Counted from the first letter of the stretch, positions 2,350-36,028 are shown. The stretch: 60,245 nucleotides of DNA from Candidatus Spechtbacterales bacterium (GCA_040879145.1 JBBDKX010000038.1:1-60245); one strand, 5' to 3'. The notes: generated from the letters alone by a model not told the origin. A program made the numbers and translations.

Positions 2350-3498
2350 TTACATTCTGGCTACAACATTCCTTAAATTGGGTATAATTTCTTTAAGTGT
2401 TTTACACGTGTAAATAATTTCTTCCTCAGTATTATACCTTGAAAAGCTAAAACGAAGGCTTGAAACCGCGTATTCATAGGGAATATTAATGGCTTCTAAA
2501 ACATGGCTTATCTCCTGCTTGCCCGCGCCACAAGCTGAACCACTGGATGCAAAAATTCCCCGCTCTTCTATTGCGTGAAGTAAAATTTCAGAAGGTATTC
2601 CTTTAAAAGCGATATTTACTATATTTAACAAACCATCCTTGGGAGAATTTATTCGGACATCCGGAACTTCTTTTAATGTCCGAATAAATTCTTCCTGTAA
2701 TTCCTTCATTTTTTTACTATTTATTTCTAAATTTTCATACGAAATTTTAACAGCTTCACTCAAACCCACGATTCCCGGCACATTCTCAGTCCCGCTTCTA
2801 AGACCCCTTTCCTGCCCCCCTCCGTGTAGAACAGGTTCTATATTTACACCCTCTTTTACAACAATCGCGCCAATACCTTTTGGACCATGTATTTTGTGCC
2901 CACTAAAAGAATACATATCAATATTTTCAAGGTCAACATCAAGCTTTCCAACCGCCTGCACTCCGTCAGAAAAAAACAGGGTTTTTGGATTTTTTAGTTT
3001 AACCGCTTCTGCGTATTCGTTTATAGGATGTACTGTACCCAACTCATTGTTTACATGCATTATTGCAACCAAAGTAGTATCTTCCCGCACAGCATTTACA
3101 AGTTCTTCTTTATTTATATTCCCATATTCATCTGTGTCCAGATATGTTAACTCAAAACCATCCTTTTCCAACGCATGGCAACTCTCAATAACCGCTTCGT
3201 GTTCTGTTTTTTGTGTAACTATATGCATACCGTGCCTCTTTAAGGCATGAGCAGCTCCTTTTATCGCAAAATTATCCGCCTCTGTAGCGCCTGAGGTAAA
3301 AAAAACTTCAGAACTTTTCACGTGTAAGGCATCCGCTACTATCTGGCGACCCTCCTTTATAGCCCGCTCTGTTTCAATGCCTTTTTTGTGCCTGCTTGAA
3401 GGATTACCATAATATTCGTTCAAATAGGGTAACATTGCCTCCAAAACTTCAGGGGCTACAGGGGTACTGGCTGAATTATCTAAATATATTTCTCGCAT
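2350..3498 (-). CDS. Cysteine desulfurase (NifS/IscS-type class V aminotransferase)
   Basis: It has IYLDNSASTP at the N-terminus, a PLP-lysine motif SFSGHKIHGPKGIG and an active-site loop SSGSACG. The track start at 3519 is a GTG; the ATG at 3496-3498 (MREIYLDN) is preferred. Confidence 0.85.
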   Translation of the reverse strand: MREIYLDNSASTPVAPEVLEAMLPYLNEYYGNPSSRHKKGIETERAIKEGRQIVADALHVKSSEVFFTSGATEADNFAIKGAAHALKRHGMHIVTQKTEHEAVIESCHALEKDGFELTYLDTDEYGNINKEELVNAVREDTTLVAIMHVNNELGTVHPINEYAEAVKLKNPKTLFFSDGVQAVGKLDVDLENIDMYSFSGHKIHGPKGIGAIVVKEGVNIEPVLHGGGQERGLRSGTENVPGIVGLSEAVKISYENLEINSKKMKELQEEFIRTLKEVPDVRINSPKDGLLNIVNIAFKGIPSEILLHAIEERGIFASSGSACGAGKQEISHVLEAINIPYEYAVSSLRFSFSRYNTEEEIIYTCKTLKEIIPNLRNVVARM

Positions 3499-3625: not shown

Positions 3626-5080
3626 TTACAAATAGTATTTCCTCTTTAGCTCCTCATCAACTGATTGCTCAAACTTATTCTGTTTATCCTTGGCCTTTTT
3701 TTCTAATTTTTCAAGCTCTTTGTCTGTCTTGGCACTTAAGTCTTTAATTTTTTCAAGTTGATATTTACGTTCATTCTTTTTTGGTTCGTCCAAAACCTCG
3801 TCAAGTAAAATATTTAATATACGCCCTATTTTCTTACCAGGCTTAACATCCGCAGCGCGCATAACATCCTCTCCATCTACCTTTAACATTCCCACTGAAA
3901 TAGGGTCTTTTTGCACCCTATCTATCATATACCTAAAGTGACGCAGTCTGTATGGTTCGGGTTTTGGAACTCCCGAACCCATTCTGTCGCATATCCTCAC
4001 CTTTACCAGATCGTCCATATTATCAGATCCAACTTTAGCTACCAGGCGCCTAACAGAGCTTTCGGTAACCTCTCCAACCTCATAATAAAAGAGGTGATAC
4101 CGAACCAAAAGTACCACTTTTTCTGTGAATTTTTTTGAGAACTTCAGGCGCTTTAAAAGCTTTTCAGCAATCTTGGCACCAACAACCTCATGGCCATAAA
4201 ACGTAGAGTCTTTTCCTTCGCCACGCTTAGTTTGTGGCTTCCCTACATCATGTAAAAGTGCGGCAAATTTCACGTGAAGCGGATAATCATGCTCTGCCGC
4301 CCACTTTAAAGCATACAAGTTGTGCTCAAAAACAGTGTATATGTGGTGTTTGTTTTGTCCCACACCTATGCCTTTTGCTATTTCCGGCAAAACAAGCTCT
4401 AAAAGCCCAGAATCCTGCATAAAAAGAATGCCGTTATGGGCGTATTTATTATCTATCATCTTAATCAATTCGTCTTTAATTCTCTCTTCCGCAACATTTT
4501 TTATCCAATGAGCATTCTCTTTTATCGCCTGAAATGTTTCACCCTCTATTGTAAAATTTAACTGTGTTGCAAAACGCAAAGCGCGCATAAGGCGCAGGGC
4601 ATCTTCAGAAAAACGCTCATTAGGGCTGCCTACCGTACGCACAACCCCTTCCTTAAGATCTTTTTGACCTTCGAAAAGATCTACAATATCATATGCTTTC
4701 TTTTTTGGCCTAAGAGCTAAGGCGTTTATTGTAAAATCGCGTCTTTTTAGGTCTTCTTCTAAGGATTCTGTAAAATCAACACTATCGGGATGGCGCTTAT
4801 CAGAGTATTTTGCCTCAGACCTAAAAGTGGTAACCTCTACTATTTTTAAACTTTCGTCTTTCGAATCTGTCTTTACGGCAACAGTTCCGAAATCATTCTC
4901 ATACACACTATCAGGAAATAATTTTTGTATTTTTTCGGGCTTTGCGCTTGTTGTTAGGTCCCAATCTTTCGGAGTTCTATCTAATAAAATATCGCGCACG
5001 CATCCGCCTACGACATAAGCTTCAAATCCCGCTTCTTCAAGGGTTTTTATAATATTTTTTACTTCTTTAGGTAACTTCAT
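3626..5080 (-). CDS. cca: CCA-adding tRNA nucleotidyltransferase with C-terminal HD domain
   Basis: It has the GGCVRD motif, RRDFTINA, and the HD-domain motif LLHDVGKP. The ATG at 5078-5080 (MKLPKEV) is preferred; an alternative ATG lies at 5107. Confidence 0.85.
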   Translation of the reverse strand: MKLPKEVKNIIKTLEEAGFEAYVVGGCVRDILLDRTPKDWDLTTSAKPEKIQKLFPDSVYENDFGTVAVKTDSKDESLKIVEVTTFRSEAKYSDKRHPDSVDFTESLEEDLKRRDFTINALALRPKKKAYDIVDLFEGQKDLKEGVVRTVGSPNERFSEDALRLMRALRFATQLNFTIEGETFQAIKENAHWIKNVAEERIKDELIKMIDNKYAHNGILFMQDSGLLELVLPEIAKGIGVGQNKHHIYTVFEHNLYALKWAAEHDYPLHVKFAALLHDVGKPQTKRGEGKDSTFYGHEVVGAKIAEKLLKRLKFSKKFTEKVVLLVRYHLFYYEVGEVTESSVRRLVAKVGSDNMDDLVKVRICDRMGSGVPKPEPYRLRHFRYMIDRVQKDPISVGMLKVDGEDVMRAADVKPGKKIGRILNILLDEVLDEPKKNERKYQLEKIKDLSAKTDKELEKLEKKAKDKQNKFEQSVDEELKRKYYL

Positions 5081-7203: not shown

Positions 7204-7250
7204 CCGCCCATAGCTCAATTGGCAGAGCAGTTGCCTCTTAAGCAATTGGT
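7204..7250 (+). pseudogene. 5' fragment of tRNA-Lys (acceptor 5' strand, D arm, anticodon arm; no T arm)
   Basis: 7202-7250 is identical over 49 nt to 7404-7452 of the intact tRNA-Lys. The two copies diverge exactly after ...GCAATTGGT. Confidence 0.8.
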
Positions 7251-7405
7251 CGGGCCCTCTAATTAAAAACTGGGGTGCATTTGACGGGATTTATTTTGCA
7301 AATATTCTAGGCGTTTGGAGTGACGCGATGTTGAAACATCGTTAGCGACAAAGAACACTAAAGATTGGCAAAATAAACCCGCCCTTTTAAAACCCAGTTT
7401 CCAGT
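7251..7405 (+). other. 155-nt structured insert between the tRNA-Lys fragment and the intact tRNA-Lys
   Basis: It contains nested complementary segments. AAACTGGG (7267-7274) pairs with CCCAGTTT (7393-7400). CGGGATTTATTTTGC (7285-7299) pairs with GCAAAATAAACCCG (7368-7381) with one bulged A. There is an inner hairpin at 7325-7342. No ORF is present. Confidence 0.4.
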
Positions 7406-22570: not shown

Positions 22571-22744
22571 CTCAGACTTCGTCTTCGTAATTTCAAATTT
22601 TAAATTTCCAATTTTAAAACAATTTTAAATGACTGAATTCCTGCCTGCCGGTTTACATGCCGATTGGTATGCAGGCAGGTTAAAACATTGGAACATTAAG
22701 GCATTAAATTAAAATTTTAAATTTAAAATTAGAGCGTAGCGACT
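22571..22744. repeat. Composite spacer element: CTTCG words, AATTTNN heptamers, GC-rich hairpin, AT words, GAGCGTAGCGAC
   Basis: AATTTCA AATTTTA AATTTCC AATTTTA lie at 22589-22616. CCTGCCTGC (22640-22648) pairs with GCAGGCAGG (22671-22679). GACTTCGTCT at 22575-22584 also occurs, inverted, inside rsmA at 19423-19432. Confidence 0.65.
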
Positions 22745-23185
22745 ATGGCACAATATCCCGTACCACAATTTATAGACAGGGAAACAAGACTTGTAGGCCC
22801 GCTAACAGTTCGGCAGATGATAATATTCGGCATAGATGCCGCGGTTTTATTTGTGCTTTGGTTTGTTTTAAATAAAATTACATTTATTTTTGCCGCCATA
22901 GTACTCACAAGTGCCGCCATAATACTTGCGTTTATAAAGATAAACGGACAACCACTAACAACTATTGTATTCTCTCTTCTAAACTACTTTCTACAACCGA
23001 GGCTGTATTTATGGGGAAAACAAGAAGATGTTGTTCAAAAAAAACCGAAGGGCGGACTATTTGATAAAATAGTGGGAGCGGGAACAGAAAAAAAAACGGC
23101 ACAGTCTTACGAAGTGCCCGAAGAGGCATCCAAAGAGCCGAGTGTTAGTGAAATAAAAGACGTAGCGAAATTGCTCGATGAGTAA
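22745..23185 (+). CDS. PrgI/VirB3-like small T4SS membrane protein
   Basis: 146 aa. YPVPQFIDRETRLVGPLTVRQMIIFGIDAAVLFVLWFVL plus a second TM match the PrgI/TcpE-type pattern. It sits immediately upstream of VirB4. Confidence 0.5.
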   Translation: MAQYPVPQFIDRETRLVGPLTVRQMIIFGIDAAVLFVLWFVLNKITFIFAAIVLTSAAIILAFIKINGQPLTTIVFSLLNYFLQPRLYLWGKQEDVVQKKPKGGLFDKIVGAGTEKKTAQSYEVPEEASKEPSVSEIKDVAKLLDE

Positions 23186-23323: not shown

Positions 23324-23974
23324 ATGCCTTCAACAGCAACAACACAAAGTTTTATACCAATAGACAACATCCGAAACGATGTCGTTGTTGTTAAGGGCGG
23401 AGAACTTAGAGCCATACTCCAGGTATCAAGTGTCAACTTTGCCCTAAAAAGCCATGACGAGCAGGAAGCTACCATATACCAATACCAAAACTTTCTTAAC
23501 TCTTTGGATTTTCCCATACAAATACTGGTAAACTCCCGCATGATGAATGTTGATGAGTATGTAGGAACAATACAGGCGATGGAAGCCAAGCAACGTTCCG
23601 ACCTTCTAAAAATGCAGACACAAGAATATGTAAAATTTATACAGCGTTTTGTGCAGGAGGCAAACATAGTCTCCACAGACTTTTATCTTATAGTGCCTTT
23701 CAGTTTAATAGACGTGGCAACAACACAGGGGGGAGCAAATGAAAGAATGAAAAGTCTTATAGGAAAACAAAGTCAACTGGGAACGATGGAGGCCGAAAAA
23801 TTCTTGTACTTCAAAGGACAGTTGATGCAGAGGGTAGACTTTGTTGCGAGTGGTCTTCATAGAATGGGTATATCTGCAAGCATGATGACAACGGAGGAGT
23901 TGGTTTCTCTTTTTTGGAGTATATATAACGGGGGAGACCTCAGAAAACGCGGTGCGATAAAACCAATGTTTTAA
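23324..23974 (+). CDS. VirB4/TrbE N-terminal domain encoded as a separate ORF
   Basis: 216 aa. IPIDNIRNDVVVVKGGELRAILQVSSVNFALKSHDEQEATIYQYQNFLNSLDFPIQILV resembles the CagE/TrbE/VirB4 N-terminal region. It ends with its own TAA stop. Confidence 0.5.
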   Translation: MPSTATTQSFIPIDNIRNDVVVVKGGELRAILQVSSVNFALKSHDEQEATIYQYQNFLNSLDFPIQILVNSRMMNVDEYVGTIQAMEAKQRSDLLKMQTQEYVKFIQRFVQEANIVSTDFYLIVPFSLIDVATTQGGANERMKSLIGKQSQLGTMEAEKFLYFKGQLMQRVDFVASGLHRMGISASMMTTEELVSLFWSIYNGGDLRKRGAIKPMF

Positions 23975-24399
23975 AACAGCTTTTAGCTTCTGGCTTTCAG
24001 CTTATTAGCTTATGATAAATTCTTATAAAGAACTAAAGGTTTGGCAACGCGCAATGGAATTAGTTGTTGCTGTATATGAACTAACCGAAAAATACGCAAA
24101 AGAAGAAACTTATGGATTAACGGCACAAACAAGAAGATCGGTAATTTCTATACCTTCAAATATAGCTGAAGGTAGGCACAGGTCCACAAGAAAAGATTTT
24201 ATAAACTTTTTGATAATAGCTTATGCATCTGGCGCAGAATTAGAAACACAAATAGAAATAGCAAAACGATTACCAAAAACCAAACAATTAAACTATGTAA
24301 AAGTTGATAATCTTTTGGAAGAAGTTATGAAAATGTTAAACATAATGATAAAAAAGTTAAAAGCTAGTAGCTAATAGCTATAAGCTATAAGCTAAACAC
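23975..24399 (+). mobile_element. IVS-like cassette: four-helix-bundle gene flanked by mutually complementary NNAGCTT heptamer arrays
   Basis: The left array is at 23977-24011 and the right array at 24361-24399. The reverse complement of the right array aligns with the left at roughly three quarters of positions by hand. The cassette sits exactly between the two VirB4 pieces. Confidence 0.4.
24012..24374 (+). CDS. Four-helix-bundle protein of the 23S rRNA intervening-sequence protein family
   Basis: 120 aa. YKELKVWQRAMELVVAVYELT, LTAQTRRSVISIPSNIAEGRHRSTRKDFINFLIIAYASGAELETQIEIA is the family pattern as I recall it. Confidence 0.8.
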   Translation: MINSYKELKVWQRAMELVVAVYELTEKYAKEETYGLTAQTRRSVISIPSNIAEGRHRSTRKDFINFLIIAYASGAELETQIEIAKRLPKTKQLNYVKVDNLLEEVMKMLNIMIKKLKASS

Positions 24400-26229
24400 A
24401 TGCCTGAAAACCCACTAAGTGACCAACAACCGAATAACCAACCTCAAAAGGGTCCTCAACCCTTCCAGCAGGCGTACCAGGTGGTGCAGCAGTCTGAACA
24501 AGTGGACAAGCGCAAGCGACTTCTTGATATAATAGCTCCGCCCGCACTTGAGGTTACAGCAAACAATGTAAAGTTGGGGAATACATTCGTCCGTACTCTT
24601 TTTGCTTTCTCTTACCCCAGATATCTGGCAGAAAACTGGTTAAGTCCTATTATAAACATAGATAGAACAGTAGATGTTTCTATATTTATAGAGCCGGCTG
24701 ATACAGCTACCATTATGAAACAGCTTCAAAACCAGTTAACCAGTGTTGAGGCGGAAATGATGGAAAGAGAAGAAAAAGGCCTTGTGCGCGACCCGCTGCT
24801 TGAAGCGGCTTATGAGAACATTGAAGATTTGCGGGACAAAATGCAGACATCCGAAGAAAAAATGTTCAAGTTTGGGCTCTATATTATAATCTACGCAAAA
24901 AGCGAGAAGGAGGTAAACGAGATAGAAAATGAGCTTCGCTCTATTTTAGAAAGCCGTCTTGTATATGTAAAACCGGCCGTGTATCAGCAAAGAGAGGGTT
25001 TTAACTCCGGCCTACCGCTGGGGCTTAATTATCTTAACCTGACAAACAGCATGAACACTTCGCCCCTATCTTCCACCTTTCCTTTTGTTTCGTTTGACCT
25101 AACAATGGATGAGGGAATTCTTTATGGAATAAACCGGCACAATTCAAGTCTTATTCTGTTTGACAGGTTCTCTCTTGAGAACGCCAACACTGTAATACTC
25201 GGAAAATCAGGCGGAGGTAAGAGTTACACCGTAAAACTGGAGGTGCTCCGCTCTATGATGTTTGGAGTGGACGTTATAGTAATAGACCCCGAAAACGAGT
25301 ACCAATACTTGGCAGAAACCACGGGCGGAAGTTTTTTCCGTGTATCTTTAACCAGCGGAGACGAGATAAACCCCTTTGATCTGCGGGAGCCCCAGGAGGA
25401 TGAAAAACCTGAAGAGCTTTTTCGCGCAAACATAATAACCCTTATCGGGCTTTTAAAGATAATGTTGGGAGACATGACGCCGGAAGAAGAGAGTGTTTTA
25501 AACGAGGCTATAATCCAAACATATGACTCGCGTGATATATCTCCGGAAACACCCAGATATTGGGAAAAAACACCACCGTTAATGCAGGACCTGCAAACCG
25601 TACTGCAAAATATGGAGGGAGGCGCAAGTTTAGCGCAACGCCTTCTTAAATACACGGATGGCGTATACTCAGGATTTTTAAATAAGCAAACAAATGTAAG
25701 CCTTGAAGGACAGCTTGTTGTGTTTAATATTCGGGATATGGAAGATGAACTTCGTCCCGTAGCTATGTACCTTATAATTAACTATGTATGGAATGCTATA
25801 AGGCGCACACTAAAGAAAAGAATGCTCGTAATTGACGAGGCGTGGTGGATGCTTCAACATCATGAAAGCGCGGCATTTCTTTTTGGTATCGCCAAAAGAG
25901 CAAGAAAATACTACCTCGGGGTTACAACAATAACCCAGGACATAGAAGACTTTTCTACGAGCGACTATGGAAGAGCGATTATCACAAACTCATCCCTGCA
26001 GATATTAATGAAACAGTCTCCGGCAACAATAGACCAACTCCAAAGAATATTTAACCTTACAGATGAAGAAAAATATCTTCTATTAGAAGATAATGTAGGG
26101 GAAGGACTTTTCTTTGCGGGAACAAAACATGTCGCAATAAAAGTTATAGCCTCTTACATAGAAGACCAGATAATAACTTCGGATCCCGAACAACTCTTAC
26201 AAATAGAAGAGTCTAAGGATCGGTTATAA
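24400..26229 (+). CDS. virB4: VirB4-type T4SS ATPase (central and C-terminal part)
   Basis: 609 aa. It has IAPPALEV...RTLFAFSYPRYL, Walker A ILGKSGGGKSYT, Walker B RMLVIDEAWWML and the downstream motif GVTTITQDIEDF. Confidence 0.85.
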   Translation: MPENPLSDQQPNNQPQKGPQPFQQAYQVVQQSEQVDKRKRLLDIIAPPALEVTANNVKLGNTFVRTLFAFSYPRYLAENWLSPIINIDRTVDVSIFIEPADTATIMKQLQNQLTSVEAEMMEREEKGLVRDPLLEAAYENIEDLRDKMQTSEEKMFKFGLYIIIYAKSEKEVNEIENELRSILESRLVYVKPAVYQQREGFNSGLPLGLNYLNLTNSMNTSPLSSTFPFVSFDLTMDEGILYGINRHNSSLILFDRFSLENANTVILGKSGGGKSYTVKLEVLRSMMFGVDVIVIDPENEYQYLAETTGGSFFRVSLTSGDEINPFDLREPQEDEKPEELFRANIITLIGLLKIMLGDMTPEEESVLNEAIIQTYDSRDISPETPRYWEKTPPLMQDLQTVLQNMEGGASLAQRLLKYTDGVYSGFLNKQTNVSLEGQLVVFNIRDMEDELRPVAMYLIINYVWNAIRRTLKKRMLVIDEAWWMLQHHESAAFLFGIAKRARKYYLGVTTITQDIEDFSTSDYGRAIITNSSLQILMKQSPATIDQLQRIFNLTDEEKYLLLEDNVGEGLFFAGTKHVAIKVIASYIEDQIITSDPEQLLQIEESKDRL

Positions 26230-26230
26230 T

Positions 26231-26635
26231 ATGACTGAGAAAATAAACAAAAGAATAAAAGAGGCGGCAGCAAAAAAAGCTGAGCAGGAGGAAAAAGACC
26301 CTTACGAAAATGTACCAGGCTTGGGCAGTCCTGAGGCATTTTTGTGGCTTATGTGGGCCTTTATACTTGATATGATGGGGGTATTAAGCGCCATATTAAT
26401 ACTTGTGTTTGGTGTGGGTCTCGCAATCTCTATTGCTGTTGATATTTTAGCAATGGGCACAATAGGCGTATATATGTACTTTAAAACAAAACACATGCCT
26501 ACAGGGAAAAGAGTGGCGCGTGCGGCAAAAAGAACGGGTTTGGTGTCCGCAATTGAAGCTGTACCCGTACTTGGTGACATAGCGTTTTCATGGACCATTT
26601 ATCTTTTTATGGAATTTAGCAAAGGAAAAGCATAA
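26231..26635 (+). CDS. Small three-TM membrane protein (T4SS-like locus)
   Basis: 134 aa with a charged N-terminus followed by three hydrophobic helices. It is tightly packed between neighbours, and its stop overlaps the next gene's start (ATAATG). Confidence 0.4.
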   Translation: MTEKINKRIKEAAAKKAEQEEKDPYENVPGLGSPEAFLWLMWAFILDMMGVLSAILILVFGVGLAISIAVDILAMGTIGVYMYFKTKHMPTGKRVARAAKRTGLVSAIEAVPVLGDIAFSWTIYLFMEFSKGKA

Positions 26636-27732
26636 TGAAACTCTACATCAAAAAATCAGTTATAGGGTTCTTGTTTTTACTGATATTTTTACTATTTAGT
26701 GCTCCTTCTTTCGCATTAGCCCTTGAGCTTGACTACCCGACAATTCCAACACCAATAGGGCCTCTAGACTTAGACACCATAACAGACGAGGGGGGGTTTA
26801 CCGTAGCTGGTCTTATTGTGTTTATTTATGGAGCCGCTATTTGGATTGCCGGAATACTTGCTTTTATTTCTCTTGTGTACGTGGGGTTTGTTTACATACT
26901 TTCCGGCTCAGGCATGGTGGGGCGCGGAAAGGCCCTCCGCAGATTAAAAAATGTGCTGTGGGGACTGGTTATATTATTATTCGTTACAGCACTTTTAAAT
27001 GTGGTAAATCCTGAAATTTTAAACTTAGAAGACTCTCTTGTTGTAGCTGTTGCGCCTAACGATAAAACATATCAGGAGGTAGAGTTTGAAGGGTTTAAGT
27101 TTGAAGGATTTTTTGTTGACAATGGTAGTGGAGGCGGTGGCACTGGAGATGGTGAGGAGCCTGTCATATCTTGCCAAGAACAGTGTTTGGCTAAATGTGG
27201 TGGCATGCCGGCTTGCGAAACAGAGTGTTTTAAACTTCCCCCTTGTCCTGAGTTAGCATGTCCAGTTCTGCGGGTTACAAGCTCTTTTACTGCGTACTGT
27301 TACGACAGGGGAAGCGCGCGCCACAACGGGCACGATGTTATGGCCAACGAAGGAACTCCTATATACGCAATGGAGGCGGGAACACTGGACAGGGTGGGGT
27401 GGATAGATTCCGGAGGGTGTCGTTTGTGGATAATTGGCACTCAATCTGGAAGAGCTTATGCACATTTACACATGGGTACTACATTAGATTGTTCTGATGC
27501 ATTCGGTTCTGGAATAAGGGAGGGGGCAACTGTTGTTGCAGGGCAAACACTGGGATATGTGGGCACAACATACAATGGACGTGCAGATGGTACTGTTGCA
27601 CACTTACACTTAACAATTGTTAAGCCCAGCGGAAGTGAAGAATGTAGTCCACCACCCCTCAGTGGAAATTATGGCGGACCAACAATGGACGGAGCTCCTC
27701 TTTTTAAACAAGCTGGGTGTCCGTTTACATAA
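26635..27732 (+). CDS. Pilin-module protein fused to a C-terminal M23 metallopeptidase domain
   Basis: In order: signal peptide, LELDYPTIPTPIGPLDLD, TM hairpin (AIWIAGILAFISLVYVGFVYILSGSGMVGRGKALRRLKNVLWGL), Gly-rich linker, a Cys cluster, then M23 motifs HNGHD, AHLHM and GTVAHLHL. Confidence 0.65.
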   Translation: MKLYIKKSVIGFLFLLIFLLFSAPSFALALELDYPTIPTPIGPLDLDTITDEGGFTVAGLIVFIYGAAIWIAGILAFISLVYVGFVYILSGSGMVGRGKALRRLKNVLWGLVILLFVTALLNVVNPEILNLEDSLVVAVAPNDKTYQEVEFEGFKFEGFFVDNGSGGGGTGDGEEPVISCQEQCLAKCGGMPACETECFKLPPCPELACPVLRVTSSFTAYCYDRGSARHNGHDVMANEGTPIYAMEAGTLDRVGWIDSGGCRLWIIGTQSGRAYAHLHMGTTLDCSDAFGSGIREGATVVAGQTLGYVGTTYNGRADGTVAHLHLTIVKPSGSEECSPPPLSGNYGGPTMDGAPLFKQAGCPFT

Positions 27733-28516: not shown

Positions 28517-29500
28517 ATGAATATTTTGAACAAATTTCGTTCAAACACAGTTGGTATACTTTTTTTTGTTATACTTTTTAGCATTATCACGCCTCACGCA
28601 GATGCGTTAACCTTGGAATTAAACTATCCGGAGATTCCAACGCCCACAGGGTCTATAGACTTAAACTGTCTGGAAATAGGGCTTTGCGACCTTAGTATCG
28701 CGCTGTTGCTTGTTGTCTTTTATGGAGCAAGTGTGTGGATAGCAGGTATACTGGCTTTTTTGGCTTTAATTTTTGCAGGAATGTCCTATATTATAAGCGG
28801 GGCCAGCCCCGGCGCGCGCGCACGCGCTAATGAAAGATTTATAAATGTTCTGTGGGGACTTTCCATTTTACTCCTTGCAAATGCTATAATATATACAGTA
28901 AACCCACAACTAATAACCGGGTTTGAAGACCCTTTGTTTCCGACAGCATCTTCAGGGTCTACAGAGTATGAAGAGATATACTTTACAAGCGAAGGGTTGT
29001 TAATAAGAGGGGGCTCAAGCGGTACAGGAGGAACAAGTGGAGGTGGGGGTGGAGGAGGCGGTACACCCTCATCCTGTAGTAGTGCAGAAGTTGTGGAAAA
29101 TGGCACAAATGAAACCTACAACCATGAAGGGTCCTCAACCGCAGAGATACAAAACACAGTATCCCAACAACTACGGGCAGAGCTTTCAGCTGGTGGATTA
29201 TCAACAGCACAAGTAGAAGATTACGCAAACTACTTCTTCACCACAGTTATACCTTGTGAAAGCACCTGGGTTCCTCACGCAGAAAACGAAGGGGGAACAA
29301 ATTGTATGGCAGTCGGGTTGTACCAGTTAGAGGATAACAGGTATGGAAAACAGGCTTGTAGGGCAGAGTATCACAGGTGGCACCACTGGCAATGCGAAAC
29401 ATCACATGCTGTAGATAGGTTTTTTGAAATAAGAAACAACAGACCAGGGTGCTCGGGTTGGGAGTACTGGGAATGCGCAAAAACAAGGTGGACCTGTTAG
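28517..29500 (+). CDS. Pilin-module protein fused to a Cys-rich lytic-transglycosylase-like domain
   Basis: It has LELNYPEIPTPTGSIDLN, the TM hairpin SVWIAGILAFLALIFAGMSYIISGASPGARARANERFINVLWGL, and a poly-Gly linker. The C-terminal CESTWVPHAENEGGTNCMAVGLYQL resembles the ES...GLxQ signature of SLT-type enzymes. Confidence 0.5.
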   Translation: MNILNKFRSNTVGILFFVILFSIITPHADALTLELNYPEIPTPTGSIDLNCLEIGLCDLSIALLLVVFYGASVWIAGILAFLALIFAGMSYIISGASPGARARANERFINVLWGLSILLLANAIIYTVNPQLITGFEDPLFPTASSGSTEYEEIYFTSEGLLIRGGSSGTGGTSGGGGGGGGTPSSCSSAEVVENGTNETYNHEGSSTAEIQNTVSQQLRAELSAGGLSTAQVEDYANYFFTTVIPCESTWVPHAENEGGTNCMAVGLYQLEDNRYGKQACRAEYHRWHHWQCETSHAVDRFFEIRNNRPGCSGWEYWECAKTRWTC

Positions 29501-30034: not shown

Positions 30035-31630
30035 ATGAGAATGAGTATTTCTAAAAAAACAACTTTTATACTGCTGCTCTCTCTGTTCTTAACAGGATTC
30101 TTTGTAATTTTAAATACCAGCCCCGCTTCAGCCCAAACTTCCTGTACACGTTGTAGTAATAATTATAGTTTTTCTTACGCAGAATGGACGGCAGTTACTG
30201 CGTGCGACCCCTACGGAGGCGAACCTGTTACCTACACTCAGGATAATTCTTGTACGGGACATAACTGTGGTAATGGGGCTTGTGAAAACGATGGATTCAA
30301 CTTTGAAACCTCAACCAACTGCCCTTCTGACTGTTCTTCATCCACATCAACACCCAGCGACACGTGCCAACGGTGTAGCCTTAACTATCCGGGATGCTGG
30401 TCTACGTGGGACAATATTGATGATAGCGACTGTGTAGCTCCCACAACAACAGATGAAATAAGCTCTGTAGAATACACCCCCACAGGATGCACAACCGGAG
30501 AGCCTATAGACAGAAGGTGTGCGGAAGGGCCTGCATGCGGTCGCTGTAGCCTTAACTATCCGGGATGTTGGGCAGTGTGGATAGATATTGATGAAAATGG
30601 ATGCACGGCTCCGAACTCTTTAAATGAGAATATAACTGTTATATATACTCCAGCGGGGTGTCAGTCCGGAAATGACTTTGACCGACGTTGCAACTTTGAC
30701 AGATTGAATGTAAATTATCCAATTGTACAAACACCGAACGGTCCCTTAGACATAAACAGCCTATACACAGGGGGTAATGTTACAATGGCGACCATTGTCT
30801 TGTTTGCATACGCGGCCTCCATATGGGTCGCGGGAATTCTTGCTTTTGTGGCTCTCATTTACGCTGGCTTTATATTTATACTATCGGGCGGAAATCCAGG
30901 CAAAAGAGTTAAAGCCAAAAAACAATTTACCGATGTTTTGTGGGGACTGTTGGTGGTTCTTTTGGTGCCTGTGATAATGAACTACATAAACCCCACAAGC
31001 GCTCTTTTGCGCGACCCCAATCTTTTGGGTGTAGATGGTAGTGACAAAGAGTTTCAATTGCCCTTATTTAGCCAGGAGGGAGATTTCGACATGGCGGCGT
31101 GCTTAAATGCGGGCAACACAACAGATTATTGTCTTGATACCTGCATAGAAGGGAGTGGGGATGATTCCATCCTAAGCTGTTCAATAGGAGCTGCGAATTG
31201 GATAATGAGCAAATGTGAATCCTCCGGAACAGCTACTAGTACTTGTGTGGATCAGTGTACAAACGAACTAATAAGCACGGGGTGGTATAACGATGCAACA
31301 AGAACAGATGCGGAATCCATTTGCGCAGGCACGGGGTCAAGTGGAGGCACTGGGGAAGGAGGGACATTCAGCACCACAGAAGAAGATAATATGTTTGTCT
31401 CATGCGCTACCATACTAGGAATTACAAACTCAAGCCTTGTGCCTTTCAGTATAAACTCAGAGCGTAACCAAGTTTTATGTGACGCACCAAGCACAGCTTC
31501 GTGGGACAACAATACCTGGTGTAGTTCTTGCTCTGATAACGGTGGAGATATTACTTCCTGTAACAATTATATAGGCAACACGTCGGGCGGTTGCTGTGAC
31601 AGGTTTAATGGATCATGCCCAACAAGTTAA
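30035..31630 (+). CDS. Cys-rich repeat protein with an internal pilin module
   Basis: It has a signal peptide and two clear ~57-aa repeats (C.RCSLNYPGCW...DRRC) preceded by a degenerate copy. These are followed by LNVNYPIVQTPNGPLDIN, the TM hairpin SIWVAGILAFVALIYAGFIFILSGGNPGKRVKAKKQFTDVLWGL, and a Cys-rich C-terminal region. Confidence 0.55.
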   Translation: MRMSISKKTTFILLLSLFLTGFFVILNTSPASAQTSCTRCSNNYSFSYAEWTAVTACDPYGGEPVTYTQDNSCTGHNCGNGACENDGFNFETSTNCPSDCSSSTSTPSDTCQRCSLNYPGCWSTWDNIDDSDCVAPTTTDEISSVEYTPTGCTTGEPIDRRCAEGPACGRCSLNYPGCWAVWIDIDENGCTAPNSLNENITVIYTPAGCQSGNDFDRRCNFDRLNVNYPIVQTPNGPLDINSLYTGGNVTMATIVLFAYAASIWVAGILAFVALIYAGFIFILSGGNPGKRVKAKKQFTDVLWGLLVVLLVPVIMNYINPTSALLRDPNLLGVDGSDKEFQLPLFSQEGDFDMAACLNAGNTTDYCLDTCIEGSGDDSILSCSIGAANWIMSKCESSGTATSTCVDQCTNELISTGWYNDATRTDAESICAGTGSSGGTGEGGTFSTTEEDNMFVSCATILGITNSSLVPFSINSERNQVLCDAPSTASWDNNTWCSSCSDNGGDITSCNNYIGNTSGGCCDRFNGSCPTS

Positions 31631-32598
31631 AGATTAAAAAACTGTTTTTTTTAAACATCCTTATTTTCATTGGGTTATTTTTTGTTTTAAACATATCAAA
31701 CGCCCAAACACTAAATCTTGACTACCCGCCGCTTAGGGTGCCGGGAGGGATTTTTGATTTAAACGACGCTTATGAGTCGGGAAAAGTCGGATTAAGACAA
31801 GTAATAATTCTCTTTTATGTACTTACTCTTTGGTCTTCAGGGATTTTAGCTTTTGTACTACTTATCTACACTGGACTTGTTTACATAATATCCGGAGGTA
31901 AGCCGGCGAAAAGAAAAGAGGCATTTCAAAAGTTTAAAAACGTCTGGATAGGAGTTGCGGTGCTTTTATTCTCCTTTTTCTTTTTAAATATTTTAAATCC
32001 CGGCATAACAAATTTGGACCTTTACGTTTTTCTATCTACCACAGGTGGCGGCACAGACTACAATTTTGATACAGATATTGCTTTTGCTCTGCCTAAAAGC
32101 CAGGCCTTAACGGCAGAGGAGGCCGGGACCTTTACTTGCCAATGGACAGGCGCTGACTGTGTCGCGAATATTAATAACTGCAACGAGGGCTTCAGTCCAG
32201 ACTGCCATTTTGGCACCAACCACGACAGCGCCAGTTATTCTGATTTTTGCACAGAAGCACAAGACAATGGACAAGCGTTCGTTTGCGTAAAAGAAGCCTC
32301 AGATATTTCTTCCTCCGAAGGATCTGGTGAGCCCGAACCACCCCCCGGTGCTGATGGTATAGACTCTACTGAAGAGGGCGTCTTAAGACAAGATTGTACT
32401 AATTATTCTATAGGAGCAAGATATGACACAGAAGATGTAGCTGGAAACAGCTATTTCTACTGCGATACAGGGATTTTAACAGACACGTTTGCGACCAGCT
32501 GGCGCAACAAATGCTTGAATGATTTCTCAGGACATGAAAGCGGTGTTTTAGATTCAAATAATGAGGCCAGGCTGTATTGCGGTTACTTAGTAAACTAA
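31615..32598 (+). CDS. Pilin-module protein with Cys-rich C-terminal domain
   Basis: It has LNLDYPPLRVPGGIFDLN plus LWSSGILAFVLLIYTGLVYIISGGKPAKRKEAFQKFKNVWIG, then a Cys-rich acidic domain. Its start overlaps the upstream gene by 16 nt. Confidence 0.5.
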   Translation: MPNKLKIKKLFFLNILIFIGLFFVLNISNAQTLNLDYPPLRVPGGIFDLNDAYESGKVGLRQVIILFYVLTLWSSGILAFVLLIYTGLVYIISGGKPAKRKEAFQKFKNVWIGVAVLLFSFFFLNILNPGITNLDLYVFLSTTGGGTDYNFDTDIAFALPKSQALTAEEAGTFTCQWTGADCVANINNCNEGFSPDCHFGTNHDSASYSDFCTEAQDNGQAFVCVKEASDISSSEGSGEPEPPPGADGIDSTEEGVLRQDCTNYSIGARYDTEDVAGNSYFYCDTGILTDTFATSWRNKCLNDFSGHESGVLDSNNEARLYCGYLVN

Positions 32599-35655: not shown

Positions 35656-35755
35656 AGTTTTGTTCACTTCGTTCACAAAAAGGTTCTAGGTACTAGGAGT
35701 TAGGTGTTAGTCTAATACCTAAAAGCTAAAACCTAATACCTGCGAGTGAAGCGAG
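35656..35755. repeat. Heptamer-word hairpin spacer (AGGNNNT x4 facing TAAWANC x4) ending in GCGAGTGAAGCGAG against the yidD stop
   Basis: AGGTTCT AGGTACT AGGAGTT AGGTGTT lie at 35681-35708. TAATACC TAAAAGC TAAAACC TAATACC lie at 35713-35740. The arms are complementary at about 21 of 29 positions by hand. Confidence 0.75.
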
Positions 35756-36028
35756 CTAATAGCATTTTTTAATTTGCCTAAAACCAACAACCAAGCCTTT
35801 TGCGGCGCCCAGTCTTTTTACAGCGTTCTTTGTATACTCAGAACAGGTGGGCCTGTGCTTACAGACGCCCGTGTTATACATGCTAAAAATTCCGTGGTCC
35901 GGAGAGAGTGTCCACTGATATACTGTAATCAACACAACAACCAAAAAACCGGGTATTTTGCCCAGTTTGCTTAAAAAAATAGGTTGGTCTTTAGTTGTTA
36001 ATAATGCCTGTTTTGCGAAATAGTTCAT
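35756..36028 (-). CDS. yidD: Membrane protein insertion efficiency factor YidD
   Basis: CKHRPTCSEYTKNAVKRLGAAKGLVVGFRQIKKC is the YidD signature. The ATG at 36028 is preferred (the track start is a TTG). It overlaps the rnpA 3' end. Confidence 0.8.
   Translation of the reverse strand: MNYFAKQALLTTKDQPIFLSKLGKIPGFLVVVLITVYQWTLSPDHGIFSMYNTGVCKHRPTCSEYTKNAVKRLGAAKGLVVGFRQIKKCY

Follow-up and report, generated by a model that had tools for sequence, protein, structure and literature searches.

What is a gene of the 23S rRNA intervening-sequence (IVS) protein family doing between the two parts of a VirB4-like ATPase? The question is raised by a 60,245-nucleotide (nt) stretch of DNA from Candidatus Spechtbacterales bacterium (GCA_040879145.1 JBBDKX010000038.1:1-60245; hereafter the window, whose positions are used throughout), in which an operon resembling that of a type IV secretion system (T4SS) encodes the N-terminal domain and the ATPase of VirB4 in two open reading frames (ORFs), separated by a four-helix-bundle gene (S23p) that is bracketed by complementary heptamer arrays. 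An earlier note on this DNA, made from the sequence alone, read the arrangement as a single-chain virB4 split by a cassette of the rRNA-IVS type. We find that the segment at 23975-24399 belongs to a widespread type of element in which an S23p gene is enclosed by inverted arrays of about five units, each 7-8 nt long, and sequence comparison with relatives indicates that this copy is a lineage-specific gain in the junction of a VirB4 that was already split in the ancestor. Below we describe the cassette and its host genes, its counterparts in the Candidate Phyla Radiation (CPR) and in Xanthomonas, and the possible action of such elements on operon transcripts.

The cassette and the VirB4 junction

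The cassette consists of an S23p gene and two arrays that together fill the junction (Table 1). The left array reads CAGCTTT TAGCTTC TGGCTTT CAGCTTAT TAGCTT, with successive periods of 7, 7, 7 and 8 nt, and the right array is made up of the units AAGCTAG TAGCTAA TAGCTAT AAGCTAT AAGCTAA (24361-24395, period 7) followed by ACAC, with the final four codons and the stop of the S23p ORF lying inside it. The two arms share a best ungapped inverted repeat of 29 nt that is 79% complementary, and in the minimum free energy (MFE) fold of 23960-24410 they pair over 33 bp and close a loop that contains the ORF, which bears out both the complementary arrays that the earlier note had aligned by hand and the ORF-in-stem layout of rRNA intervening sequences that it had proposed. 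The arm-arm duplex has a predicted energy of -37.7 kcal/mol compared with -23.2 kcal/mol for shuffled arms (z=-3.8). The stem runs from within the last VirB4-N codons to 1 nt short of the VirB4-C ATG, and the predicted fold sets the VirB4-N stop (23972-23974) beside the VirB4-C start (24400). No further run of at least three AGCT units occurs elsewhere in the 60-kb window. The window also has no Rfam match to rRNA, and the element sits between two protein genes. Neither a sigma-70-like promoter nor an intrinsic terminator was found on the + strand in or beside the cassette, which therefore appears to depend on read-through transcription of the operon.

Table 1. Features of the cassette, its host operon and a related hairpin in the window.
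Feature	Position	Strand	Evidence
PrgI-family (VirB3-like) gene of the T4SS-like operon	22745-23185	+	Pfam PrgI E=1.6e-10; tblastn and junction context
VirB4/TraC-like ATPase N-domain cistron (VirB4-N), stand-alone, 216 aa	23324-23974	+	precomputed PF26593 TraC-like; match to P0349
Interrupted stem of 33 predicted base pairs between 23967-24011 and 24361-24398	23967-24398	+	MFE fold, pair list
Insert of 425 nt: both arrays with the S23p ORF between them	23975-24399	+	empty sites L001, L003, L004, L087, L088
Left array, five NAGCTT heptamer/octamer units, abuts the S23p ATG	23977-24011	+	sequence; family-wide counterpart
S23p / 23S-rRNA-IVS-family four-helix-bundle gene, 120 aa	24012-24374	+	PF05635 E=8e-36
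Right array, five (A/T)AGCTA heptamers and ACAC	24361-24399	+	sequence, fold
Second VirB4 cistron (VirB4-C), 609 aa: remaining N-terminal region and P-loop ATPase domain	24400-26229	+	Pfam, PDB, P0349
Gene with T4SS_pilin match below cutoff (20.1 vs 26.6 bits) and M23 peptidase domain	26635-27732		
Other T4SS_pilin-matching genes	28517-29500; 30035-31630; 31615-32598		
ORF-less array hairpin: four TAGGNN units, 1-nt gap, four NNCCTA-type units	35687-35735		looser scan, fold

To our knowledge, no function has been known for S23p (PF05635) proteins since intervening sequences were described in the 1990s. Membership of the 120-aa protein in this family, as the earlier note had recognized, is clear from a match to 105 of 106 positions of PF05635 (23S_rRNA_IVP; 122.9 bits, cutoff 33.8), from a match of a profile of the window protein and its relatives to the structure of Xanthomonas XCC0516 (PDB 2gsc, E=1e-29), and from an AlphaFold2 monomer (mean predicted local distance difference test score, pLDDT, 92.4) with four helices at residues 5-25, 36-56, 60-86 and 96-118, for which Foldseek returns 2gsc at the top (template modelling, TM, score 0.82-0.87), followed by 2rld and then Avd. 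The passage of PMC3936711 on PF05635 proteins gives the motif GxxRxxxSxxxNxxE, and the window protein has its R42, S46, N50 and E53 (RSVISIPSNIAEG), with the first G replaced by Q39, a residue that is invariant in the CPR clade. The protein is basic (isoelectric point, pI, 9.55) and presumably pentameric by analogy with its structural relatives, as the crystal entries 2gsc and 2rld contain five chains each and the Xanthomonas S23p structure is cited as a homopentamer (PMC4990558). S23p identity is 65-77% across many CPR phyla, compared with approximately 53% for VirB4-C and approximately 38% for VirB4-N in the same genomes, and the C-termini of S23p are variable because the downstream array overlaps the last codons. 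Neither Pfam nor Foldseek gives any recognizable nuclease or recombinase fold or transposase domain in S23p. Membership of S23p and bAvd in the HEPN nuclease superfamily was considered and dropped, as a search of the HEPN survey (PMC3710099) for bAvd, S23, 23S rRNA and intervening found no mention of any of them.

Both flanking ORFs proved to be parts of VirB4, in agreement with the earlier note. The 609-aa cistron has a GKSGGGKS Walker A motif, matches P-loop_TraG (E=2e-29) and AAA_10 in Pfam, and in the PDB matches 4ag5, the C-terminal domain of VirB4 (E=6e-45), as well as residues 445-735 of TrwK. The 216-aa ORF has no match in the local Pfam scan, which did not return the PF26593 (TraC-like) label that this ORF carries in precomputed annotation only, and its N-domain profile has no significant PDB match; its homology to VirB4 N-domains therefore rests on P0349, a fused 797-aa homologue found by exhaustive profile search. 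Residues 1-212 of the N-piece align to P0349 1-218 (36% identity, E=4e-43), and residues 43-607 of the C-piece align to P0349 232-796 (56% identity). Because the alignments end at 218 and resume at 232, the two pieces, 825 aa in total, are contiguous on the fused protein, with the break inside a 13-residue linker.

That the cassette made this break, by inserting into a single-chain virB4 and splitting the ATPase at a domain boundary, was the central proposal of the earlier note, and the summed length of the pieces, their contiguity on P0349 and the existence of rare fused forms (1 among the best 150 representatives) are what it would predict. The relatives, however, refute it. The best 120 homologues of the N-piece all stand alone, have lengths of 195-243 aa and come from groups that include Spechtbacteria, Giovannonibacteria and Nealsonbacteria, and the VirB4 junction, which we read in 18 related loci (5 Spechtbacterales and 13 distant CPR), lies between two genes in every one of them. 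A search of relatives for an uninterrupted virB4 thus returned empty sites, but with the gene already in two pieces: in the five Spechtbacterales loci (L001, L003, L004, L087 and L088) the N-domain and ATPase genes are separate and adjacent without a cassette, at gaps of 4, 58, 1, 30 and 14 nt, and VirB4 is likewise encoded as two ORFs in 13 of 13 distant loci. At the junction of L001, whose N-domain protein is 84% identical to that of the window, the sequence reads ...ATGTTTTAA-TAAT-ATGCCT..., an empty site of the form TAA-TAAT-ATG; in the window, 425 nt stand in place of the 4 bases TAAT, between reading frames of the same extent. The window itself encodes no single polypeptide that joins the VirB4 N-terminal domain to the ATPase, but two cistrons. 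The cassette-free split relatives therefore indicate that the cassette entered a pre-existing spacer and did not split virB4. For the annotation of CPR genomes, this means that a two-cistron VirB4 is the normal state and does not denote disruption.

The ENA copy of the contig of the closest relative (L002) has an extra 155 nt in its ATPase gene, which we considered as an insertion and rejected, since it is a run of N from scaffolding. This artefact at L002:2041-2142, of approximately 100 N and a duplicated 55-nt edge, has led to a truncated ATPase gene call of 455 aa.

Array-flanked S23p genes in CPR and Xanthomonas

The S23p family is very large: the search for homologues gave at least 8000 scored candidates, nearly all of them significant. 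We read the flanks of 80 genomic loci of close homologues from CPR genomes, using heuristic calls of start codons and arrays. Nearly all of these loci have TAGCTT-type units upstream and AAGCTA-type units downstream of the S23p gene, with at least two units on both arms in 53 of 77 CPR loci and 0-1 units in control windows. The modal count is five per arm (upstream TAG units number five in 25 loci and four in 19; downstream CTA units number five in 34), spacings of 7 nt are more frequent than those of 8 nt and these more frequent than those of 9 nt, and the CPR consensus can be written 5'-(TAGCTTN)5 - ORF - (NAAGCTA)5-3'. The median arm-arm duplex energy is -37.8 kcal/mol compared with -24.9 kcal/mol after shuffling (median z=-3.1). 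Moreover, the arms covary: units that deviate from TAGCTT are shared between the two arms of a locus 40 times, compared with 16.3 +/- 3.5 for permuted partners, and none of 2000 permutations reached 40. Covarying pairs include TAGGTT/AACCTA, TAGGAG/CTCCTA, TAGTTGG/CAAACTA and TAGTTT/AAACTA.

The surveyed genes are strongly co-oriented with their neighbours (62 vs 5 upstream, 68 vs 5 downstream), and the median gaps of approximately 41 nt upstream and 21 nt downstream of the S23p gene imply that the arrays fill the spacers. The neighbours are housekeeping genes, among them MraZ|MraW, DnaK (Hsp70), MreB, DNA polymerase I, DNA ligase and Fpg, as well as tRNA synthetases, glycolytic enzymes and glycosyltransferases. 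No rRNA context was found in the 20 of the 80 loci that were scanned with Rfam, which lacked co-oriented neighbours, and most of the others lie between protein ORFs. The closest Spechtbacterales homologue of the window S23p (76% identity; L086:3001-3384) lies between rny (RNase Y) and ymdB, and comes from the same metagenome-assembled genome (MAG) as the empty VirB4 junction L003. With L086 filled at rny|ymdB and L003 empty, related genomes carry similar cassettes at different operon junctions. S23p paralogues within a MAG are 61-82% identical and the closest pairs occupy orthologous positions, which points to long-resident elements rather than actively bursting transposons. Collectively, these comparisons support the earlier note's reading of an IVS-type cassette and generalize it beyond the window to a widespread, operon-embedded class of elements related to rRNA intervening sequences, for which, as for the arrays in CPR, a limited literature search found no prior description.

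In addition to the cassettes, 474 kb of fetched sequence contain 12 hairpins without an ORF, in which a TAG array and a CTA array are separated by a short loop. One such hairpin lies in the window, in the yidD|yidC spacer of a minus-strand rnpA-yidD-yidC-jag operon, where it ends 11 nt before the yidC start (35676) and has the appearance of a non-autonomous cassette relative. The fold of 35670-35760 has an energy of -30.6 kcal/mol (z=-4.3), and the other strand gives z=-3.5.

T4SS-like operons recur among the host contexts. The T4SS-like cluster hosts 13 of the 80 cassettes, directly upstream of the PrgI-like gene, and 2 further cassettes adjoin ksgA, which flanks the cluster. In 4 of these 13 T4SS-like clusters (L016, L025, L026 and L063), an ORF-less array hairpin lies at the VirB4-N|VirB4-C junction itself, and in L063 its units covary as CAGGTG/CACCTG instead of TAGCTT/AAGCTA. 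The cluster of L026 (Paceibacterota) has arrays at three consecutive junctions, namely before the cassette and prgI (2400-2500), at prgI|virB4N (3310-3380) and at virB4N|virB4C (4015-4092). The VirB4-N|C junction is thus a recurrent home for such elements, and its recurrence may reflect selection or an old inherited insertion.

A counterpart of the cassette is present in Xanthomonas, where orthologues of XCC0516, the protein of PDB 2gsc, are encoded between accB and accC and in the same orientation (records L089-L093, approximately 1424-1873). An array of four GGGAATC-type units starts 5-6 nt past the accB stop, the opposite array of four NATTCCC units extends up to the accC ATG, and the predicted arm-arm duplexes have energies of -44.7 kcal/mol (z=-4.1) and -56.9 kcal/mol (z=-6.7). 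The layout is therefore shared across phyla: a sense-oriented S23p gene in an intercistronic spacer, with inverted arrays of 4-5 heptamers on its two sides and a unit sequence specific to the lineage. In some Xanthomonas records the annotated S23p start lies inside the array, giving a call of 129 aa instead of 109 aa. The provision of stop codons in all frames was considered as the purpose of the TAG/CTA units and rejected; it holds in 62 of 75 CPR loci and is not general, as the GGGAATC units of Xanthomonas contain no stop.

The GGGAATC repeats at this locus are those that Rehm et al. (2015; PMC4692102) described in Xanthomonas, mostly as arrays of four units and with function unknown, together with similar repeats in Nostoc. 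Inverted pairs of the arrays number 70 in Xanthomonas campestris pv. campestris, and the G-rich units were interpreted as G-quadruplex-forming (PMC4692102). Like the CPR arrays, the Xanthomonas GGGAATC and Nostoc GGGGA(T/C)T repeats form intergenic arrays of approximately four heptamers, often as convergent pairs, and are transcribed, with one Nostoc array lying between the operon genes pecE and pecF (PMC4692102); unlike the Xanthomonas repeats, the CPR units have another sequence and cannot form G-quadruplexes. A search of PMC4692102 for the terms '23S' and 'helix bundle' found no mention of either.

A close known parallel in anatomy is with the rRNA intervening sequences of Coxiella burnetii and Leptospira, which likewise carry a PF05635 ORF in sense orientation in a loop closed by terminal inverted repeats. 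The Coxiella IVS is 428 nt long (425 nt here), its terminal stem, which is cut by RNase III, is 28 bp long (33 bp here), and directly upstream of the ATG it has 3-4 tandem GACAGAT heptamers of variable copy number (PMC4990558), where the window has five NAGCTTN units. There are also differences. A bona fide IVS is located in an rRNA gene, whereas the host of the window element is the spacer of a protein operon and not 23S rRNA helix 45. Both arms of the window element consist entirely of heptamer arrays, and the CPR protein is highly conserved (65-77% identity), in contrast to the decaying ORF of Coxiella. Moreover, excision by RNase III, which has been demonstrated for rRNA intervening sequences, is a candidate process for the CPR element. 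Insertions in CPR rRNA genes themselves include 23S_rRNA_IVP ORFs (bioRxiv 10.1101/2024.02.27.582315).

Two further groups of proteins invite comparison. Avd of diversity-generating retroelements (PDB 4dwl, 8ub7) shares the four-helix-bundle fold (TM approximately 0.75-0.84), but its sequence identity to S23p is approximately 12% and the bAvd hidden Markov model gives 19 bits, below its cutoff of 40. Five subunits make up the positively charged barrel of Avd, which has an RNA element dedicated to its binding (bioRxiv 10.1101/2023.10.23.563531). Among the scanned neighbour genes no reverse-transcriptase family was matched; the template and variable repeats (TR/VR) of such retroelements were not searched for. 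In the passage of PMC3936711 that deals with them, PF05635 genes inside cas operons are interpreted as cas-associated. Similarly to the S23p genes described here, they are wedged between operon genes, for example in Pleurocapsa at cmr3|cmr2 with gaps of 85 and 5 nt, but that passage reports no flanking arrays.

Possible action on operon transcripts

We hold with moderate confidence that, taken as a whole, these observations describe a widespread operon-embedded S23p array element that acts on mRNA in the manner of an rRNA IVS. The part of this statement with direct support, namely how the element is built, its insertion, its conserved and covarying arms, its bias in orientation and the forms without an ORF, is highly secure; the RNA-level mechanism, which we infer, is a serious candidate that falls somewhat short of probable. 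By analogy, the element would act on polycistronic mRNA as a rRNA IVS does on pre-rRNA. The arms would pair in the operon transcript, and the resulting stem of approximately 33 bp would loop out the ORF and join the upstream stop to the downstream start, recreating the stop-start adjacency of the relatives (1-4 nt, probably translationally coupled) and preserving expression of the flanking cistrons. The same stem would hide the S23p stop together with the sequence ahead of the S23p ATG, the expected place of a ribosome-binding site, and the cassette would thus be nearly invisible to the coupled translation of its host cistrons. As in rRNA, the stem is a plausible RNase III substrate, cleavage of which would set the cassette RNA free. 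The basic, presumably pentameric S23p protein probably recognizes the arrays of 4-5 units, one unit per subunit, much as Avd engages its RNA; the idea of one unit per subunit derives from the modal five units per arm, the five-chain crystals, the basic pI and the binding of RNA by the Avd pentamer.

Several observations weigh against this proposal. The fold of the whole 451-nt region reaches only z=-1.5, and the stability signal therefore resides in the arms and not in the ORF. If pairing took place in RNA, G-U pairs might favour the sense strand, but the sense strand is more stable in 31 loci and the antisense strand in 43 (p=0.06), and this absence of excess sense-strand stability leaves no G-U signature in favour of an RNA-level over a DNA-level role. 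The 80 loci, being the best matches to a CPR alignment, are not independent in phylogeny and in part are orthologous, and about a quarter of the loci have no clear array on one side. The agreement of five units with a pentamer is so far a numerical coincidence, and Xanthomonas has four units. No RNase III gene was identified by its signature motif in the 60-kb window, a result that is uninformative for the whole genome. RNase III cleavage, translational coupling and binding of the protein to the arrays are all deductions from sequence and analogy.

In an alternative reading, the cassette is a mobile element at the DNA level, comparable to MITEs (miniature transposable elements with inverted repeats) or to the REPtrons formed by repetitive extragenic palindromic (REP) sequences and their associated transposases (RAYTs). 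The arrays would then serve as terminal inverted repeats that offer several binding sites, mobility would be provided by S23p itself or by a function that it recruits, the hairpins without an ORF would be non-autonomous copies, and any stem in RNA would be incidental. Such an element would account for arms that are Watson-Crick symmetric without sense-strand bias, for the presence of the cassette in one and its absence from the other of two relatives with 84% identity between their VirB4 N-domain proteins, for the many different insertion contexts and for the existence of ORF-less copies, and it accords with a long-standing speculation that intervening sequences are remnants of transposition or are mobile, with the ORF supplying mobility (PMC4990558). 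REP elements, bacterial interspersed mosaic elements (BIMEs) and MITEs are likewise short palindromic elements of intergenic and intercistronic spacers, REPtrons also hold a protein gene between inverted copies of the repeats, and ORF-less copies are dispersed in both cases. We nevertheless regard mobility at the DNA level as rather unlikely, though a live rival. The single clean filled/empty pair shows no target-site duplication, the 61-82% identity of copies within a MAG gives no sign of recent bursts and the orthology of the closest pairs implies long vertical residence, and orientation biases of 62:5 and 68:5 are not expected from insertion alone. Moreover, S23p is a 120-aa helical bundle with no recognizable nuclease or recombinase fold and is no HUH/Y1 transposase, and the arms are tandem heptamer arrays rather than single hairpins; the duplication, transposase and near-identical copies that mark transposons with terminal inverted repeats, MITEs and REPtrons are all absent from what we found.

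The recurrence in T4SS-like operons suggests instead that the cassette could be a dedicated accessory or regulator of the CPR T4SS-like machine, setting for example the VirB4-N:VirB4-C ratio or the timing of the operon, and not a generic element. The 13 of 80 homologues upstream of the PrgI-like gene and the 2 beside ksgA, the ORF-less hairpins that 4 of 13 clusters carry precisely at the VirB4-N|C junction, and the arrays at three consecutive junctions in L026 would all fit such a role. This, too, appears improbable, and more so than mobility, given that approximately 80% of the cassettes lie between unrelated housekeeping genes, including rny|ymdB, and that the Xanthomonas copy lies at accB|accC; in addition, the five Spechtbacterales relatives have the same operon without a cassette, and the copies located in the T4SS may all go back to a single old insertion with vertical inheritance. 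We retain the generic operon-embedded element acting on mRNA as the preferred explanation.

A broader extension of the preferred explanation can be put forward only tentatively, as possible but doubtful: S23p and the tandem heptamer arrays may be a cognate protein-nucleic-acid pair conserved from CPR to Gammaproteobacteria, in which a pentamer ring binds the 4-5 units of an arm, and rRNA intervening sequences, the Xanthomonas and Nostoc heptamers and the PF05635 genes of operons may be one system. Its units would be lineage-specific, TAGCTTN in CPR, GGGAATC in Xanthomonas and GACAGAT in the Coxiella IVS, and it would have autonomous, ORF-bearing members and non-autonomous members that consist of the hairpin only. 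If this were true, binding of the ring would govern how operon transcripts fold, are processed by RNase III or are translated. Should S23p genes prove generally to lie in sense orientation between cistrons and to be bracketed by inverted arrays of 4-5 heptamers with covarying units, PF05635 would gain a concrete partner that can be tested, the arrays, and a candidate role in how operon mRNA is processed or its cistrons are coupled. It would also account for the Xanthomonas and Nostoc heptamer repeats, as well as the presence of "IVS protein" genes in unrelated operons such as cas loci.

Further features of the window

Several other features of the window were recorded outside the cassette. Upstream of the PrgI-like gene, an unusually long, AT-rich spacer of 174 nt contains a GC-rich hairpin, CCTGCCTGC...GCAGGCAGG, at 22640-22679 (-21.5 kcal/mol), directly followed by a promoter-like site at 22688-22715; the hairpin may serve the T4SS-like operon as a regulatory element or a terminator. 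Downstream of VirB4, four T4SS_pilin-matching genes between 26635 and 32598 resemble an expanded set of pilin-like paralogues. Elsewhere in the window, a weak 51-nt match to the Rfam tRNA model (7204-7254, 31.6 bits), which has no ARAGORN call and lies 150 nt upstream of a tRNA-Lys, may be a truncated or degenerate tRNA.

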